This document shows positions 5,191 to 33,670 of a stretch of DNA of 64,000 nucleotides, one piece after another. Within the stretch, counting starts at the first letter, position 1. Each line of letters starts with the position of its first letter. The stretch is from Candidatus Cloacimonadota bacterium. GTDB taxonomy: Bacteria; Cloacimonadota; Cloacimonadia; Cloacimonadales; TCS61. The DNA lies in the NCBI GenBank assembly GCA_030600585.1, contig JAUVLU010000002.1, positions 2,740 through 66,739 on the forward strand, written 5' to 3'. The translations under genes and the position numbers were made by a program. Under the pieces are notes generated by a model, which was given only the letters and a program-made list of their open reading frames with translations, had not been told where the DNA came from and did no database searches.

Positions 5191-6758
5191 TATTTTGCAA
5201 TCGCTGTTTGTCGTGTTTCACGAATGACTAAAACTTTGATCTGCCCGGGATATTGCATTTCTGCTTCTATTTTTTCTGCAATATCAGAAGCTACAAATGC
5301 TGTATGTTTATCATCAACTGCGACAGGATCCACGATTATTCTCAATTCGCGTCCGGCTTGAATAGCAAAAGATTTATTAACACCTTCAATTGAGTTGGCT
5401 ATTTCTTCCATTTTAGTAAGACGTTTCATATATGTTTCAAGCATTTCTCTTCTTGCGCCCGGTCTTGCACCGGAAACAGCATCTGCAACCTGTGTAAGAA
5501 CTGCATAAACACTTTGATATTCGACTTCTTCATGATGAGCTTCAATAGCATTAACAACTATTTTGCTTTCTCCATTCTTACGTGCGACATTTGCACCGAG
5601 ACTGGCATGTGAACCATCATATTCGTGGTCTATTGCCTTTCCAAGATCATGCAGGAATCCGCAGCGACGTGCTAGTTCCTGATCAAGATTTAATTCAGTT
5701 GCAAGAATACCACAGATCCAAGCTGCCTCTATGGAATGGCGAAGAATATTCTGTCCGTAACTTGTACGGTATTTCAATCTTCCGATAAGTTTTACAATGT
5801 TTGGTGAGATGTTATGAATATTTGTTTCCATACATGCTTTCTCGCCGATCTTAATAAGATTGTTATCCATTTCTTTTGTAATTTTTTCGATAACCTGTTC
5901 GATGCGTCCCGGATGAATTCTGCCATCCTGGATCAATTTTTCCAGAGAAAGGCGAGCAATTTCCCGACGCACCGGATCGAAGCCTGAAAGAACTACAGCT
6001 TCGGGAGTATCATCGATGATCAGATCGATTCCAGACGCTTGCTCAAAAGCCCTGATATTTCTGCCTTCTCTACCTATTATCCTTCCTTTCATTTCATCAT
6101 CCGGAAGCGAAACAACTGAGACAGTAGATTCGGAAACGTAATCGACAGCAACCCTTTGAATAGCTGTAGAAAGGATTCCGGCGACAAGTTGATCTGCTTC
6201 CGCTTTAGTATTCTCAGCTATTTTACGGATTTCTTTTGCAGCTTCGTTACGAGCTTTATTTTTCAGATTATTTTTCAGGATCTGAATTGCTTCATCACGA
6301 GACAGTTTTGCGATTTCGGATAATTTTGTGTTCTGCTGTTCAATCAGTTCATCAAGTTTTTCTTTTTTAGAAGCTATCTCGATATCTTTATCCTTAATTT
6401 CTTTTTCAAATTCTTGAAGTTTATTTTCTTTCTTATCGAGATTTTCTAATCTGTTATCAAGTTTTATAACCCGTTCGTTGTATTCCTTTTCCAGTGTGTA
6501 AATCTCACGTTTACGAGTATTGATCTCTTCTTCATAATTTTTTTGAACTTTGTACCATTCTTCTTTCGCTTCTAAAACAGCAGCTTTCTTCAAATTTTCC
6601 GTTTCTTGTTTTGCATCATTGATTATCTTCTTAGCAAATTCATTTGAAGAAAGAATTTTTTTATCAGCAGAAGATTTCTTTACGAAATTTATGATCAGGG
6701 AAATAAAAATCCCGACCAGAAATGCACCTCCAATGTAAATTATATTTATATCGTGCAT
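5190..6758 (-). CDS. rny: Ribonuclease Y
   Basis: 522 aa. N-terminal TM helix, long coiled coil, KH domain (GRIIGREGRNIRAFE) and HD domain (LHDLGKA). Confidence 0.95.
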   Translation of the reverse strand: MHDINIIYIGGAFLVGIFISLIINFVKKSSADKKILSSNEFAKKIINDAKQETENLKKAAVLEAKEEWYKVQKNYEEEINTRKREIYTLEKEYNERVIKLDNRLENLDKKENKLQEFEKEIKDKDIEIASKKEKLDELIEQQNTKLSEIAKLSRDEAIQILKNNLKNKARNEAAKEIRKIAENTKAEADQLVAGILSTAIQRVAVDYVSESTVSVVSLPDDEMKGRIIGREGRNIRAFEQASGIDLIIDDTPEAVVLSGFDPVRREIARLSLEKLIQDGRIHPGRIEQVIEKITKEMDNNLIKIGEKACMETNIHNISPNIVKLIGRLKYRTSYGQNILRHSIEAAWICGILATELNLDQELARRCGFLHDLGKAIDHEYDGSHASLGANVARKNGESKIVVNAIEAHHEEVEYQSVYAVLTQVADAVSGARPGARREMLETYMKRLTKMEEIANSIEGVNKSFAIQAGRELRIIVDPVAVDDKHTAFVASDIAEKIEAEMQYPGQIKVLVIRETRQTAIAK

Positions 6759-6787
6759 TATTTACCTCACTTTGATCTATTATTTTA

Positions 6788-6952
6788 CCCGCGATACCGT
6801 GTACCATGTACTTCTGGAACCTTGGAACAAGGTGGACGTCTACCGTTTTTTGCTTTACATCTCCGGATCATGTCCGGTTCATGCGCCACAAAGGGCCTGA
6901 CTTCCTATTCATAATTGGTTCTGAATATCGATAATATCACGAATACCGCAGG
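6788..6952 (-). ncRNA. ssrS: Candidate 6S RNA (rod-like structured RNA immediately downstream of zapA)
   Basis: GC-richer 165-nt intergenic segment. On the minus strand, 5' CCUGCGGUAUUCGUG pairs with 3' CACGGUAUCGCGGG (14 bp, one bulge, three G-U pairs that would be A-C mismatches on the plus strand). There is an apical hairpin CCGGA-CAUGA-UCCGG and internal complementary blocks (GUGGCG/CGUCCAC, GAACC/GGUUC). The zapA-ssrS synteny is known from E. coli. Confidence 0.55.
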
Positions 6953-6955
6953 CAA

Positions 6956-7228
6956 TTATTTTTCACTAACCTCTATTTCATCTATCAGATCGTTGATCTG
7001 CTCAAACTTTTTTGATAAATTTTTATAATCATCAATTTCAGAAAGATATTTCTCCGTCATCGACAATGCATAAAGAACTAATAATTTATTTTGATCTACT
7101 GTATTAAATCTTTCGTTCAATTTTTCCAGTTGATCTTCTACATACTCGGCTGTTTTTTTCAGCTTTTCAGGTTCATCACTTCTAAAATAATAAGTTCTAC
7201 TGAGAATCTTAATTTCAATAGATTTCAT
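6956..7228 (-). CDS. zapA: Cell division protein ZapA
   Basis: 90 aa. IKILSRTYYFRSDEPEKLKKTAEYVEDQLEKL...LLVLYALSM matches the ZapA fold signature. It lies downstream of pheST, as in Firmicutes. Confidence 0.75.
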   Translation of the reverse strand: MKSIEIKILSRTYYFRSDEPEKLKKTAEYVEDQLEKLNERFNTVDQNKLLVLYALSMTEKYLSEIDDYKNLSKKFEQINDLIDEIEVSEK

Positions 7229-30002: not shown

Positions 30003-30221
30003 TTCTCGTCACCCTGACGAATCTTATACGTTGCTCTCCTAAGGAAGGGTCATACATTATTAAACCCTCTTTAATAAGCCGTAGGCTTATAAATTCTCCC
30101 TTACAAAGGGAGACTCCTACAAAACCAGACTCGTGTTATTTTCGACTCGAAAGATATATCAAGTCGAAGTAATTTATTAAAAAGATTTCGAGTCGTTGTT
30201 CCTTACGACCCGATGAATAAT

Positions 30222-30419
30222 TTAATCTTGTTTCTTCTTAAAATAATCTAAAACTCCAAGCGACATCAATACACCGATTGCTGCGAATATTACTCCAAGA
30301 GTGGTTAAGGTAATTGCAAGAATACTTATTTTCCCAATTAATAATTGTCCTATAATGCTCAAAGTAAGTCCGATAGCTGTAAATTTTAGCGCATTCAATT
30401 TATTTATCTTTATTTTCAT
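30222..30419 (-). CDS. Small two-TM membrane protein, unknown function
   Basis: 65 aa with two clear hydrophobic helices. The coding call is weak. Confidence 0.35.
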   Translation of the reverse strand: MKIKINKLNALKFTAIGLTLSIIGQLLIGKISILAITLTTLGVIFAAIGVLMSLGVLDYFKKKQD

Positions 30420-30884
30420 ATTTAACCTTATGAAGAAAATTTATAAAGATATACTATTTAAGCAAGAAGAAATGAAAGAAGGGTGATCGTTCTCCCGAAA
30501 TAATTCTGGAAACCGCAGGAAGAAAAATTGTCATCCTGCCTGCCAAGCCATAGTAGCACGAAGGCTGGAGCGGAGACGAAGGATAATTCACCGCAAAGAC
30601 GCTAAGTACGCAAAGAAAGACAACTATTGAATAAATCTGTCTTTCTGAACCCCATCCCAACCCTTCCCCTTAAACTAATGGGAAGGGAGTTTTACTCGTT
30701 CCTCCGGTATTTAACGGATGGTCTTGAACCTAACAATGGCTAATTGCACCGCTTCGACTCGACGTTTCTCTTTCGAGTCGAAACTCAGAATTATTTTCTA
30801 ATTGACACATAATAATAATATTTACAAATTCGGTTTTGATTTAATAATTAATTTGCAACATTAGAATTTAGGGGAGAAGTTTTG

Positions 30885-31046
30885 AAATTTATACAAAAGA
30901 TTTGGGGACATAAGAATTTAAAAACCCCGATACATTTTTTCAAAACTATGGGGAAGGCAACAGAAATTTATATACATATCACAAAAAAAGGACTCAGTAA
31001 AATTAAGAATCCACTTGATAACTTGAATATTGAGGATGAATTATAA
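30885..31046 (+). pseudogene. C-terminal remnant of a tyrosine recombinase/integrase
   Basis: A 54-codon open frame, KFIQKIWGHKNLKTPIHFFKTMGKATEIYIHITKKGLSKIKNPLDNLNIEDEL*, matches the integrase C-terminus (..LLGH.s.kTTeIYtHv....l..i.sPLD.L) including the catalytic-Tyr box. That box appears partly duplicated. No upstream integrase sequence remains. Confidence 0.7.
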
Positions 31047-31123
31047 AGGTGCGCAATAACTCTGATATTGAAGTTATGACGAACCTTTTTGGTGTAACTA
31101 GAGGTTAGTTATGTGCACCTTTT
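31045..31123 (+). other. Long imperfect hairpin in the RT leader (candidate cis-RNA element or element boundary)
   Basis: aaaggtgcgcaataact (31045-31061) pairs with agttatgtgcacctttt (31107-31123), giving 16 bp with one G-U and one bulge. Mutually exclusive small hairpins (ataact/agttat, taacta/tagtta) lie inside. Confidence 0.45.
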
Positions 31124-31170
31124 ATAAGGGCGCAGCGTGCATATGTTAGCTGCTATCAGAGGTAAAATAT

Positions 31171-33084
31171 ATGGCTCAAAGTTATAATTTAGGAAGTTTT
31201 CTTAAACTCGAATATGTAGAAAAGGGATTTGAGTTACTAAAAAAACAAATTGAAGAAAATACTCATACTTTTAAAACACTCGAATTAGAGATTTACAGAA
31301 AAGAAGATTATCTAAATGGATTTGATATTATGAATTATTACAATGTTTATATAAAAAAAGATGTCTTTTACAATTATCCAAATCTTTTTTATAATAATTC
31401 GTACACAATGCCGAAAAGTAATTTAGGTGTCAGAAGTTTCAATTTCACTTCATTTAGATTAATGATTCTTTATTATTCATTAGGTTTTTATCTTCACAAT
31501 GTAATTTCATCATCTTTGATTGAATTAGAAGTAATAAAAAAAGAAAAAAATATTAATACATATTATGGTGGCAAACTTAATTACGATAACCCTTCAGCAA
31601 GTAAAATATATTATCATAATGATTACAAATCATTTTTGAAGGGTATTAATAATTCAGCAACAGAAATTATTAAAGACAACAAAAAAGCTATTGTTATCAA
31701 AATGGATATTCAAGATTATTTCAATAATATTGATCACCTTACTTTATTGAAAATTATTGAAAATTATTCTATCCCTTCTGTAAAACAAAATAAGAGTTTC
31801 AATCCAGAATCTAAAGACTCAATATTACAATTACTAAATTTTATTGTTGAGGATAAAAAGGGTTTACCTCTGTCAGCTAATAATATAATTTCAAACTATT
31901 TGAGTTATATTTATTTAATTGAATTGGACGATTATGTGAGGAAAAACATATTAACAAAATCTAATTTTAAGTATTTTCGATATGTCGATGATTTTTATAT
32001 CATTTATTCAGTTGAAAAGACAAAACTGAATGATGAAATTGGAAATATTAATTTCAAAATTTGTACCTCTGTATCAGACTTTCTTATGCACAAATTATCC
32101 TTACGTATTAACAATCTTAAATCAAAAATAAATATTATTGAAAACGAAGATCAACTTATTAAATTTAAATCTTTAAGTAAATTTTTTAGTTTTCCTCCTG
32201 ATATTGAAGTTCAAGATGAGAAATTAAGGAACAATTTTACAAAAGTTATTGAAGTTATTGAAAGATTAAAAGCAGATTTCAAAACTTTTGGTGAGGCTTC
32301 TTTAGATTCTGAAGACGACTCGTTATTAAAAGAAATGTTTCTTACATCAGTGAAAAATGATCAGATGTCAAATTACGTAAAATCTAAAGAAGCTATTAAA
32401 CAATTGGACAAAGCTTTTCTTGGCTGGAATTTCATTCTAACATTAAATAATATTAAATCATTGATGTTTTTTATCGGAAGTTCAAATAAAAGTTTTAAAA
32501 AACTCGAAAAATATCTAAAAGATAATTTTAAAGATATTGTCAAAAAAACTCAATATTTATACCTTCTTGAGCGAGTTTTGCTTAATGAAAAATATTCAAA
32601 TTCTTTAGATACAAACTTTATTGCAAATTATGTGAATTGCATTCCCTATTATGAAATACTAAAAAGAATAGTATTTCCTAAAATTGATAAAAATGAAAAT
32701 GATTTACCTTTTGACGATAACCTTCTTAATAGTTTAAATAGTTTAACCCAACAAATCAAACTGATGCATTTAGCTGAAAAAATGCAAAATTATAATGTAG
32801 CATTTAATCATCTATTGAATTCATTACATTATTATTGCTTTCATAATTTTTCTACACCAAAAAAATTAAAAAATTATGACCGTAATGATTTAGTAAAAGA
32901 TATTAAACAATTTCTAACATTAAGAGAAATTAGTTTTGTCATATCTTTTTTCGATAGAAGAAATAAAAACAGTATATCACATCCTGGAGAGAATGAGCTT
33001 ATTAACTGGATTGTTGGTAAAAAAGAATATTATGATTACAAAACAAAGTTAAAAGTAATTATAAAAAAACTAAACAGCAGCTAA
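31171..33084 (+). CDS. Reverse transcriptase with C-terminal HEPN-type Rx6H motif (AbiA-like, defence-associated RT)
   Basis: 637 aa. RT motifs: TMPKSNLGVRSF (1/2), IVIKMDIQDYFNNIDH (A, Asp codon at 31705), GLPLSANNIISNYLSYIYLIELD (B), FRYVDDFYII (C, YVDD at 31981-31992) and LSLRINNLKSKI (D/E). The C-terminus has FFDRRNKNSISHPGE, i.e. R-x6-H (32959-32982). Size and architecture equal lactococcal AbiA. The gene is visibly more AT-rich than its neighbours. Confidence 0.85.
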   Translation: MAQSYNLGSFLKLEYVEKGFELLKKQIEENTHTFKTLELEIYRKEDYLNGFDIMNYYNVYIKKDVFYNYPNLFYNNSYTMPKSNLGVRSFNFTSFRLMILYYSLGFYLHNVISSSLIELEVIKKEKNINTYYGGKLNYDNPSASKIYYHNDYKSFLKGINNSATEIIKDNKKAIVIKMDIQDYFNNIDHLTLLKIIENYSIPSVKQNKSFNPESKDSILQLLNFIVEDKKGLPLSANNIISNYLSYIYLIELDDYVRKNILTKSNFKYFRYVDDFYIIYSVEKTKLNDEIGNINFKICTSVSDFLMHKLSLRINNLKSKINIIENEDQLIKFKSLSKFFSFPPDIEVQDEKLRNNFTKVIEVIERLKADFKTFGEASLDSEDDSLLKEMFLTSVKNDQMSNYVKSKEAIKQLDKAFLGWNFILTLNNIKSLMFFIGSSNKSFKKLEKYLKDNFKDIVKKTQYLYLLERVLLNEKYSNSLDTNFIANYVNCIPYYEILKRIVFPKIDKNENDLPFDDNLLNSLNSLTQQIKLMHLAEKMQNYNVAFNHLLNSLHYYCFHNFSTPKKLKNYDRNDLVKDIKQFLTLREISFVISFFDRRNKNSISHPGENELINWIVGKKEYYDYKTKLKVIIKKLNSS

Positions 33085-33096
33085 CAAACGTGTCAG

Positions 33097-33670
33097 GTGC
33101 GTCACGAGGTGTGATATTGTCAGTTGGTTAAAATCCAACGCATTTAATTTTCCGTTCAGATGGAAGTGATGGAGATGGCTTGATTCGGTAACGAGTCGGT
33201 CAAAGCTCTCCTAATCGTTAAATAAGCCGTAGCGTAAGCGAACAGATTAGCTTCGTTAATTGTAATTTGCAGTCGGCGAGTCTCTTGGGCTTGATGAAGC
33301 CTGCTACTCAACAGGAAGAAACGGAAAGTAGCACTGTTGAGGACTGTCGGAGTTGTAACTGATGGCGTGTTTGAGAATGATAATGTCATAGACGTGAGAG
33401 AGCCTTTATATCAAAGATTGGCAATCTTAAATGTTTTTCTATAAGGGAAATCTGAAATGAAAAGCAGGTATAAAGGCAGTCGGAGATGCCCATAGTAGTG
33501 TTGATATTTGGTTCATAACTATGGGCTTATAAATCCAGCGAGATATACTTTTGTTTGATACTTATGAATGCTTAAGATGAATCTTGTCGGTAAGCCGTAT
33601 GCGGGAAAACCGCCCGTCCGGTTTGATGAGGGTTGCAGGTTCTCCATTTGGAAACCTGCTTCTACTCTAC
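33097..33670 (+). mobile_element. ORF-less group II intron ribozyme (or decayed remnant)
   Basis: Starts with GTGCG at 33097. Domain V is AAGCCGTATGCGGGAAAACCGCCCGTCCGGTTT at 33592-33624, with the AGC triad, a GAAA-type loop and a CGU.CGGUU 3' strand. A domain VI-like hairpin (GCAGGUU...AACCUGC) follows, with a candidate branch A seven nucleotides before the ...CUCUAC end. There is no room for an intron-encoded protein in domain IV. The segment is clearly GC-richer than its flanks. Confidence 0.7.

Follow-up and report, generated by a model that had tools for sequence, protein, structure and literature searches.

An ORF-deleted copy of a mobile Cloacimonadota-type group II intron lying, it appears incidentally, beside an AbiA-type RT-HEPN gene

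The features of the locus are collected in Table 1. The DNA analysed is a stretch of 64,000 nt (the window) from a Candidatus Cloacimonadota bacterium, in which a gene for an AbiA-type reverse transcriptase (RT)-HEPN protein is followed on the same strand by a group II intron that contains no ORF. [quoted passage not shown] The genes around the locus are those of an FCB-group chromosome, among them genes for T9SS-sorted surface proteins and an aminotransferase. Elsewhere in the window a 6S/SsrS RNA is found on the minus strand at 6782–6957 (75.3 bits, gathering score 46.4).

Table 1. Features of the intron locus, in window coordinates
Feature	Coordinates	Strand	Basis and remarks
AbiA-type RT-HEPN gene, 637 aa	31171..33084	+	PADLOC AbiA, Pfam RVT_1; upstream exon context, outside the intron
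5′-exon homing-site motif TAACAAACGTGTCAG	33082..33096	+	TAA is the RT stop codon; IBS2 ACAA 33084–33087; IBS1 UGUCAG 33091–33096
ORF-less (ORF-deleted) group II intron, 574 nt	33097..33670	+	Rfam RF02005 and RF00029 above gathering thresholds; identity to relatives
Domain I	33102..33397	+	MFE fold and RNAalifold consensus, seven family members
EBS2 core UUGU	33260..33263	+	Pairs with ACAA (33084–33087)
EBS1 hairpin, 8-nt loop CUUGGGCU (33284–33291)	33275..33301	+	EBS1 UGGGCU 33286–33291
Domain II	33402..33477	+	MFE fold, RNAalifold consensus
Domain III remnant and substitute, hairpin GCCCAUAGU/ACUAUGGGC	33488..33526	+	Deletion junction 33510/33511
3′ remnant of domain IV and linker to domain V	33527..33589	+	Homology to the sequence that follows the ORF in L204, L207, L208, L209 and L212
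Domain V	33592..33624	+	AGC triad 33593–33595; U33598·C33618 mismatch; private A-to-C change at bulge position 33614
Domain VI	33629..33670	+	Bulged A33664; end ...CUAC; Rfam alignment; 3′ end common to all relatives

The upstream protein matches the PADLOC AbiA profile PDLC03741 at full length, through its RT, helical and HEPN regions (E = 2.7e-43, residues 54–634 aligned with profile positions 47–591 of 595), and it also has a match to Pfam RVT_1; a phmmer search against the PDB gave no match. Its YVDD sequence (271–274) conforms to the YxDD motif and RNKNNISH (597–604, R597...H604) to the HEPN motif R-X(4-6)-H, and both are invariant among 23 homologues. The corresponding HEPN motif of L. 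lactis AbiA is RNSNPVSH (PMC11077055). AbiA polymerases synthesize DNA independently of template and primer (PMC11077055), so that no RNA partner would be expected for this RT. The GC content of the gene (23–28% over 31000–33000) is markedly below that of both flanks (32–39%), which suggests that the RT is a horizontally acquired defence gene.

Some further features surround the RT gene. The ORF is bracketed by an 11-nt perfect inverted repeat (TGTTAGCTGCT at 31144–31154 and AGCAGCTAACA at 33075–33085). Its 5′ leader contains the motif GCGTGC-N(5-8)-TTAGCT, which is shared with the leader of an RT homologue on contig L001 (L001 3960–3990) and resembles the 3′ ends of a ~135-nt intergenic element (described below) in L207, L210 and L001. 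The repeat and the leader motif could be a cassette boundary, or could mark pairing between the 5′ and 3′ UTRs. Upstream of the RT there are 1.17 kb of non-coding sequence, for which a remnant of an intron or an intron-encoded protein (IEP) was considered and ruled out by blastn and tblastx. At 30140–30783 a pair of 15-nt perfect inverted repeats (TTTCGACTCGAAAGA), 614 nt apart, encloses a small hydrophobic ORF on the minus strand (30222–30419). Within the same region the sequence at ~30542–30585 (CCATAGTAGCACGAAGGCTGGAGCGGAGACGAAGG) resembles the domain III motif of group II introns, with neither an Rfam match nor similarity to the intron family described below.

The element downstream of the RT was analysed with Rfam cmscan at the curated gathering thresholds. 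Its 5′ part matches RF02005 (group-II-D1D4-6) at 33130–33360 on the plus strand (54.7 bits, threshold 49, E = 1.3e-12), and its 3′ end matches RF00029 (Intron_gpII, domains V and VI) at 33590–33670 on the same strand (44.5 bits, threshold 40, E = 1.7e-5). The element begins with GTGCG at 33097 and ends with ...CUUCUACUCUAC at 33670, conforming to the GUGYG and AY boundaries of group II introns. At least nine relatives have the same ends, and those of full length (87.5–91% identical) begin GTGCGTCACGA and finish TTCTACTCTAC. The minimum free energy (MFE) fold has the six-domain layout, with the hairpin 33488–33526 at the place of domain III and a short remnant of domain IV. The RNAalifold consensus of seven family members, covering domain I, domain II and the start of domain III, comprises 124 base pairs, 10 of them with compensatory changes, and these together with the RF02005 score support the fold of domain I. 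Domain V has the AGC triad and a 2-nt bulge, and the bulged adenine of domain VI (A33664) is the seventh nucleotide counted from the 3′ end. Judged by its sequence and predicted fold, the element is a genuine group II intron ribozyme. The Rfam matches and the fold thus bear out the first-pass annotation, which had recognized the GTGCG start, domain V, the bulged A of domain VI and an end near 33670; its estimate of ~575 nt lacking an IEP also agrees with a length of 574 nt and with the absence of any ORF on the intron strand within 33097–33670.

Two features of domain V had been noted there as departures that might indicate decay. The extra A in the loop is no defect, since the form GCGG-GAAAA-CCGC is shared by all the close relatives and occurs in 120 or more introns from metagenomes. 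The U33598·C33618 mismatch is real, but is weak evidence of decay. The same mismatch (GUCCGG) is present in the IEP-bearing copy L217, and because it recurs in IEP-bearing copies (L197 and L126 besides L217) it is probably tolerated.

Close relatives of the intron carry the protein that the window copy lacks. A spurious 77-aa antisense ORF in domain I (33156–33389, minus strand), used as a protein query, found two called ‘proteins’ with 77–78% identity. At the nucleotide level the window intron is 87.5–91% identical over 33097–33510 to the IEP-bearing introns of contigs L204–L212, and 79–85.5% identical over 33520–33670. L204 and L205 are 90% identical to window 33082–33510, as is L206 with a match starting from 33077, and L204 is also 82% identical to 33520–33632. 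Between these two blocks L204 contains an ORF with RVT_1 and GIIM domains, called as 424 aa (the family form is 441 aa), and its product used as a query gives a large IEP family in which the close members are 78–100% identical. One of these, P0046 in L207 (GCA_030656075.1), is annotated as ‘group II intron reverse transcriptase/maturase [Candidatus Cloacimonadales bacterium]’. The ORF is always present in the seven contigs L207–L213, where the intron is again 87.5–91% identical in its 5′ and 79–85.5% in its 3′ part. Five further contigs (L214–L218) hold close IEP relatives, together with the EBS1 hairpin or domain V of the family where these are on the contig. Every relative recovered has the 441-aa RT/maturase (RVT_1 and GIIM) in domain IV, the norm of the family being a protein without an endonuclease domain, and in Rfam the relatives score just over threshold for D1D4-6 or D1D4-4, plus RF00029. 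In related metagenomes the IEP family is common and present in many copies, and contigs there collapse to the length of the intron. The window copy does not have the IEP in domain IV that characterizes a mobile group II intron, and a tblastn search of the 64-kb window with the IEPs found no maturase. None of the close IEP relatives recovered comes from the sample of the window itself (SRR18936872).

Individual members of the family have some peculiarities. The L204 copy (minus strand) has an insertion of ~65 nt within domain VI compared with all other members, and the first ~55 nt of its 3′ exon resemble those of L212. L212 contains a second, apparently ORF-less group II intron (D1D4-7, 87.9 bits, 2094–2232; domains V and VI, 67 bits, 2774–2850), the D1D4-7 match beginning 115 nt downstream of the first intron. 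The full-length intron of L207 is located between paralogous PD-(D/E)xK (DUF1016/YhcG) genes (1295–2320 and 5678–6799), a pair that matches the PADLOC candidate system PDC-S02.

Wider searches returned other group II introns. Blastn matches in plasmids and phages cover the universal domain V segment only, belong to D1D4-4-type IEP-bearing introns of Leptospira and Rhizobium, and were set aside. A domain V pattern scan of viral contigs found nothing, while in metagenomes it found the at least 120 diverse introns mentioned above, none of them close to the window copy. L166, L107, L086 and L094 were considered as close kin and proved to be distant, being of use solely to locate EBS1. L166 (132–783) and L107 (261–936, minus strand) are ORF-less D1D4-6 introns from high-GC soil metagenomes that score ~165 bits on RF02005, and the intron in L107 starts directly after the TGA stop codon of an upstream ORF. 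The AT-rich L135 was rejected as a relative, as it is a truncated IEP-bearing fragment. The supplementary files of Weinberg et al. (2010) describe the D1D4 motifs as ‘presumably the 5′ part of a group II intron’, and no more.

The introns of the family are preceded by a common sequence. A 15-nt motif (TAACAARCGTGTCAG) lies directly before the introns of L204/L205, L206, L210 and L212, where it can be written TAACAA(A/G)CGTGTCAG, and before that of the window; L209 and L211 have the form CAACAAACGTGTCAG, and several of the 5′ exons fit RYYYAAC. The sequence further upstream is unrelated from site to site, and in L207 the equivalent TAA terminates an unrelated 328-aa ORF. There is no hairpin upstream of the insertion site. 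The intron thus lies 12 nt past the RT stop codon because of the target preference of its family, this stop being followed by the homing motif, and the sole tie of the intron to the RT is that the TAA of the target motif is the RT stop codon.

At three sites the canonical homing site of the family forms the 5′ end of a conserved intergenic element of ~135 nt (L001 2557–2691, L207 5440–5551 and L210 2303–2414). The element contains the internal hairpins UCUGAACCUUACGGUUCAG and GAAUC-N6-GAUUC, and has no Rfam match. The copy in L001 is unoccupied, TAACAAGCGTTTCAG passing directly into CGGG at the insertion point. An nhmmer profile built on the copies of L001, L207 and L210 detects the element nowhere in the window. 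This result, together with ends of the ~135-nt element that do not complement each other, leaves the idea of an attC target unsupported.

The exon-binding sites (EBS) could be located from their covariation with the 5′ exon. EBS2 is in a single-stranded stretch 5′ of the EBS1 hairpin, and the pairing UUGU/ACAA of the window is replaced by UUUGU/ACAAA in L206 and L212, by AUGU/ACAU in L207 and by AAGAG/CUCUU in L208. EBS1 corresponds to positions 3–8 of the loop in a hairpin of the D1D4-6 model, and covaries with exon positions −6 to −1. In the relatives the pairing is perfect or nearly so, with six positions of six paired in four covarying variants: CUGACA/UGUCAG in seven contigs, AUGACA/UGUCAU in L214–L216, CAGGUG/CACCUG in L207 and AGGGUC/GACCUU in L208, and the distant ORF-less introns have UCCAAG/CUUGGA (L166) and UCAUUC/GAAUGA (L107). 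L207 has been retargeted, with exon sites CACCUG and ACAU. Exon positions −12 to −2 can also pair over 11 bp with 33363–33373. This complementarity was rejected as EBS1 or EBS2, since 33363–33373 forms a conserved helix of domain I with 33218–33230 that is backed by a G·U to G–C change in L206 and L212.

The window copy pairs at one of its two sites. The first-pass annotation had proposed that EBS1–IBS1 pairing be sought with the upstream exon; EBS2 does pair with IBS2, but EBS1 (UGGGCU) and IBS1 (UGUCAG) are mismatched, forming two Watson–Crick pairs, two G·U pairs and two mismatches. The EBS1 loop is unlike that of every relative, and in the MFE fold the changed sequence can form an alternative hairpin (GGGCUU/AAGCCU). 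Four or five changes are clustered within ~8–9 nt, more than would be expected of neutral drift on a branch with few private changes, and retargeting or gene conversion from a paralogue therefore seems as plausible as drift.

The ORF has been lost by a deletion of ~1355 nt that removed the whole coding sequence, the 5′ part of domain IV and the 3′ half of domain III. In the relatives GAUAUUUG is followed by the 3′ strand of domain III (GAGACAACAUAACUCAGAAGUAGCGAAGGGGC), and then by domain IV and the ORF. Where GUUGAUAUUUG leads into that strand in the relatives, the window copy is joined directly to GUUCAUAACUAUGGGC..., which is homologous to the sequence following GAT(T)ATTT(A/G)G at the end of their ORF. 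The missing segment is flanked by the imperfect direct repeats GATATTTG and GAT(T)ATTT(A/G)G, and with its endpoints at such repeats the event looks typical of deletion by slippage or microhomology. The conserved 3′ strand of the domain III internal loop (GUAGCGAAGGGGC) is lost, so domain III is not intact, and the retained post-ORF segment pairs instead with the 5′ strand of domain III as a perfect 9-bp helix (33488–33496 with 33518–33526). Many metagenomic contigs end at this repetitive intron, and it might be asked whether the ORF-less form arose through collapse or chimeric joining of multiple intron copies during assembly. This is unlikely in the extreme; Logan contig L081, a separate assembly of SRR18936872, is 100% identical over 711 nt comprising the 3′ end of the RT, the whole intron and the 3′ exon, and a junction at a direct repeat is typical of a genuine deletion.

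In other respects the window copy has changed little. In columns invariant in six aligned relatives it has four private changes within the 5′ 414 nt, compared with 12 in L208 and 13 in L209, and there are about five in its 3′ part, including the A to C at the domain V bulge (33614). With few private changes, fewer than in some of the IEP-bearing copies, the copy is on sequence grounds young, and may still be foldable. The clear defects that can be read from its sequence are the lost ORF, the truncated domain III and the unmatched EBS1. These favour the suggestion of the first-pass annotation that the element may be decaying, and the EBS1 that does not match its own 5′ exon, with half of domain III deleted, weakens its alternative of a trans-mobilized ORF-less intron.

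An intron of this kind might nevertheless be active, spliced by the maturase of full-length copies elsewhere in the genome and perhaps mobilized, in which case its adjacency to the RT would again be incidental. Domains I, II, V and VI are well conserved with few private substitutions, the EBS2–IBS2 pairing is intact, and a stable substitute hairpin occupies the position of domain III, where the perfect 9-bp helix could reflect selection for folding after the deletion. The abundance of the multicopy IEP family in related metagenomes would provide a source of maturase, and in bacteria an ORF-less intron is hardly ever found without related copies that encode an IEP (PMC4424553). Set against this are an EBS1 that makes only two Watson–Crick and two G·U pairs of a possible six with IBS1 where its relatives pair perfectly or nearly, the deletion of the conserved strand of the domain III internal loop, the absence of an IEP from the 64-kb window, and the origin of all the close IEP relatives recovered in samples other than SRR18936872. 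Continued activity is accordingly given a small but appreciable chance.

The association of intron and RT was examined at 20 loci with full-length RT homologues (29–56% identity, one genome per species), which come from Bacteroidota and from one Cloacimonadota MAG. None of the 20 has a co-oriented group II element adjoining the RT at the Rfam gathering thresholds, and none has blastn similarity to the window intron. The sole group II matches are in L010, on the opposite strand and to other D1D4 models. The ribozyme is thus beside the RT in one of 21 members of the RT family, and is not an RNA conserved next to its RT in the manner of a retron- or DRT-like system. The closest RT homologue (L001, 56% identity) has no intron, and has an unoccupied ...AGCTAACAAGCG... 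stop context; its RT ends ...AGC TAA CAAGCGCGACTTCGGG, which resembles the unoccupied form of the window exon junction. The homing motif is absent from the stop-codon contexts of the other RT homologues. The pairing of intron and RT therefore looks incidental, and the first-pass view of an Abi RT with a group II ribozyme as a functional or novel arrangement is not supported, given its absence at all 20 homologous loci and the unrelated contexts in which the intron family sits.

The same data bear on co-option of the ribozyme by the AbiA-type RT-HEPN system, which had been raised as processing of the RT transcript 3′ end. [quoted passage not shown] The position of the ribozyme on the same strand, 12 nt past the stop codon and with no predicted terminator in front, would suit such a role, and the altered EBS1 and remodelled domain III can be read as adaptation, not decay. 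A closely related version, in which a hydrolytic or structural 3′-end element has an EBS1 and domain III remodelled to block exon ligation, or in which the RNA is a ligand of a HEPN/RT dimer, is equally improbable, with hardly any weight given to it. Co-option in general is very improbable, as the ribozyme accompanies one RT in 21 and is missing from the closest homologue, the insertion site is the generic homing motif of the family, the ORF was lost by a simple repeat-mediated deletion, and AbiA needs no RNA template (PMC11077055). No positive support for a co-opted function emerged. Such a domestication of a group II ribozyme by a defence RT would, if real, be without precedent.

Bacterial ORF-less introns are rare but documented (PMC4424553; PMC12350094). 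The window intron is like the ORF-less derivatives of IEP-encoding introns (Simon et al. 2008; Zimmerly and Semper 2015, PMC4424553) in being an apparently complete ribozyme of ~0.6 kb that lacks an IEP, in having family members elsewhere that encode an RT/maturase, and in its site outside coding sequence. It differs from the described trans-spliced ORF-less introns in having lost the 3′ half of domain III and in having an EBS1 that is not complementary to its own exon, and is more degenerate than these. With the Cloacimonadota family (L204–L218) it shares its boundaries, the 15-nt 5′ exon motif and high identity, and it is set apart by the missing ORF, truncated domain III, unique EBS1 loop and private substitution in the domain V bulge. 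Like the HYER ribozymes, which are ORF-less class IIC RNAs in the account of Liu et al. (2024) given in PMC11754743, it is compact, a group II RNA that encodes no protein. Unlike HYER as portrayed in that account, it has a covarying EBS2–IBS2 pairing, no hairpin-type target and close relatives with IEPs; the absence of EBS2, the stem-loop target and the IEP-less lineage of class IIC/HYER do not apply to it, and the HYER-type class IIC ribozymes are a different lineage.

The arrangement of an RT gene beside a structured RNA on the same strand recalls the retrons and some DRT/UG systems. In contrast to these, the window RNA is not conserved with its RT (0 of 20 loci), is a mobile-type intron with its own homing site, and is next to an RT of the template-independent AbiA type. 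The group IIC-attC introns of integrons, reportedly the subject of work by Quiroga in 2008 and by Leon and Roy in 2009, are comparable in homing to a short conserved sequence at or just past the stop codon of variable genes. The window intron differs from them in not being of class IIC and in running in the direction of the upstream gene; the ends of the ~135-nt target element of its family also lack the kind of complementarity seen in an attC.

The locus is probably best explained as an incidental copy of a site-specific mobile Cloacimonadota-type intron family, ORF-deleted, located in the 3′ UTR of the RT and probably both impaired in splicing and immobile. From the conservation of the target, an intron with a canonical EBS1 would have reverse-spliced between TAACAAACGTGTCAG and CGG, a target that here happens to start at the TAA stop codon of the AbiA-type RT-HEPN gene. 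The ~1355-nt deletion between short direct repeats then removed the whole maturase ORF with the adjoining parts of domains III and IV. Exon pairing has also been lost, in that EBS1 no longer fits the 5′ exon, with domain I, domain II, the 5′ half of domain III, domain V and domain VI otherwise well preserved. As a result the intron would be carried in the 3′ UTR of the RT mRNA as a structured passenger of 574 nt, leaving the RT protein unaltered. The intron would then probably be splicing-impaired and immobile, and would have no role in the AbiA system.

The claimed new RT–ribozyme system does not hold up, and what is present is a common mobile element that inserted here as an isolated event. 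For scans of genomes there is a caution in this, as an RT gene adjoining an intron ribozyme does not imply joint function. The window copy provides a natural snapshot of the origin of an ORF-less intron, by repeat-mediated deletion of the ORF and part of domain III, while its relatives form a compact natural data set on the retargeting of EBS1/IBS1 and EBS2/IBS2 within a family that is ~90% identical. They also put on record an intron lineage of the Cloacimonadota whose short target motif forms the 5′ end of an intergenic element that is itself conserved.
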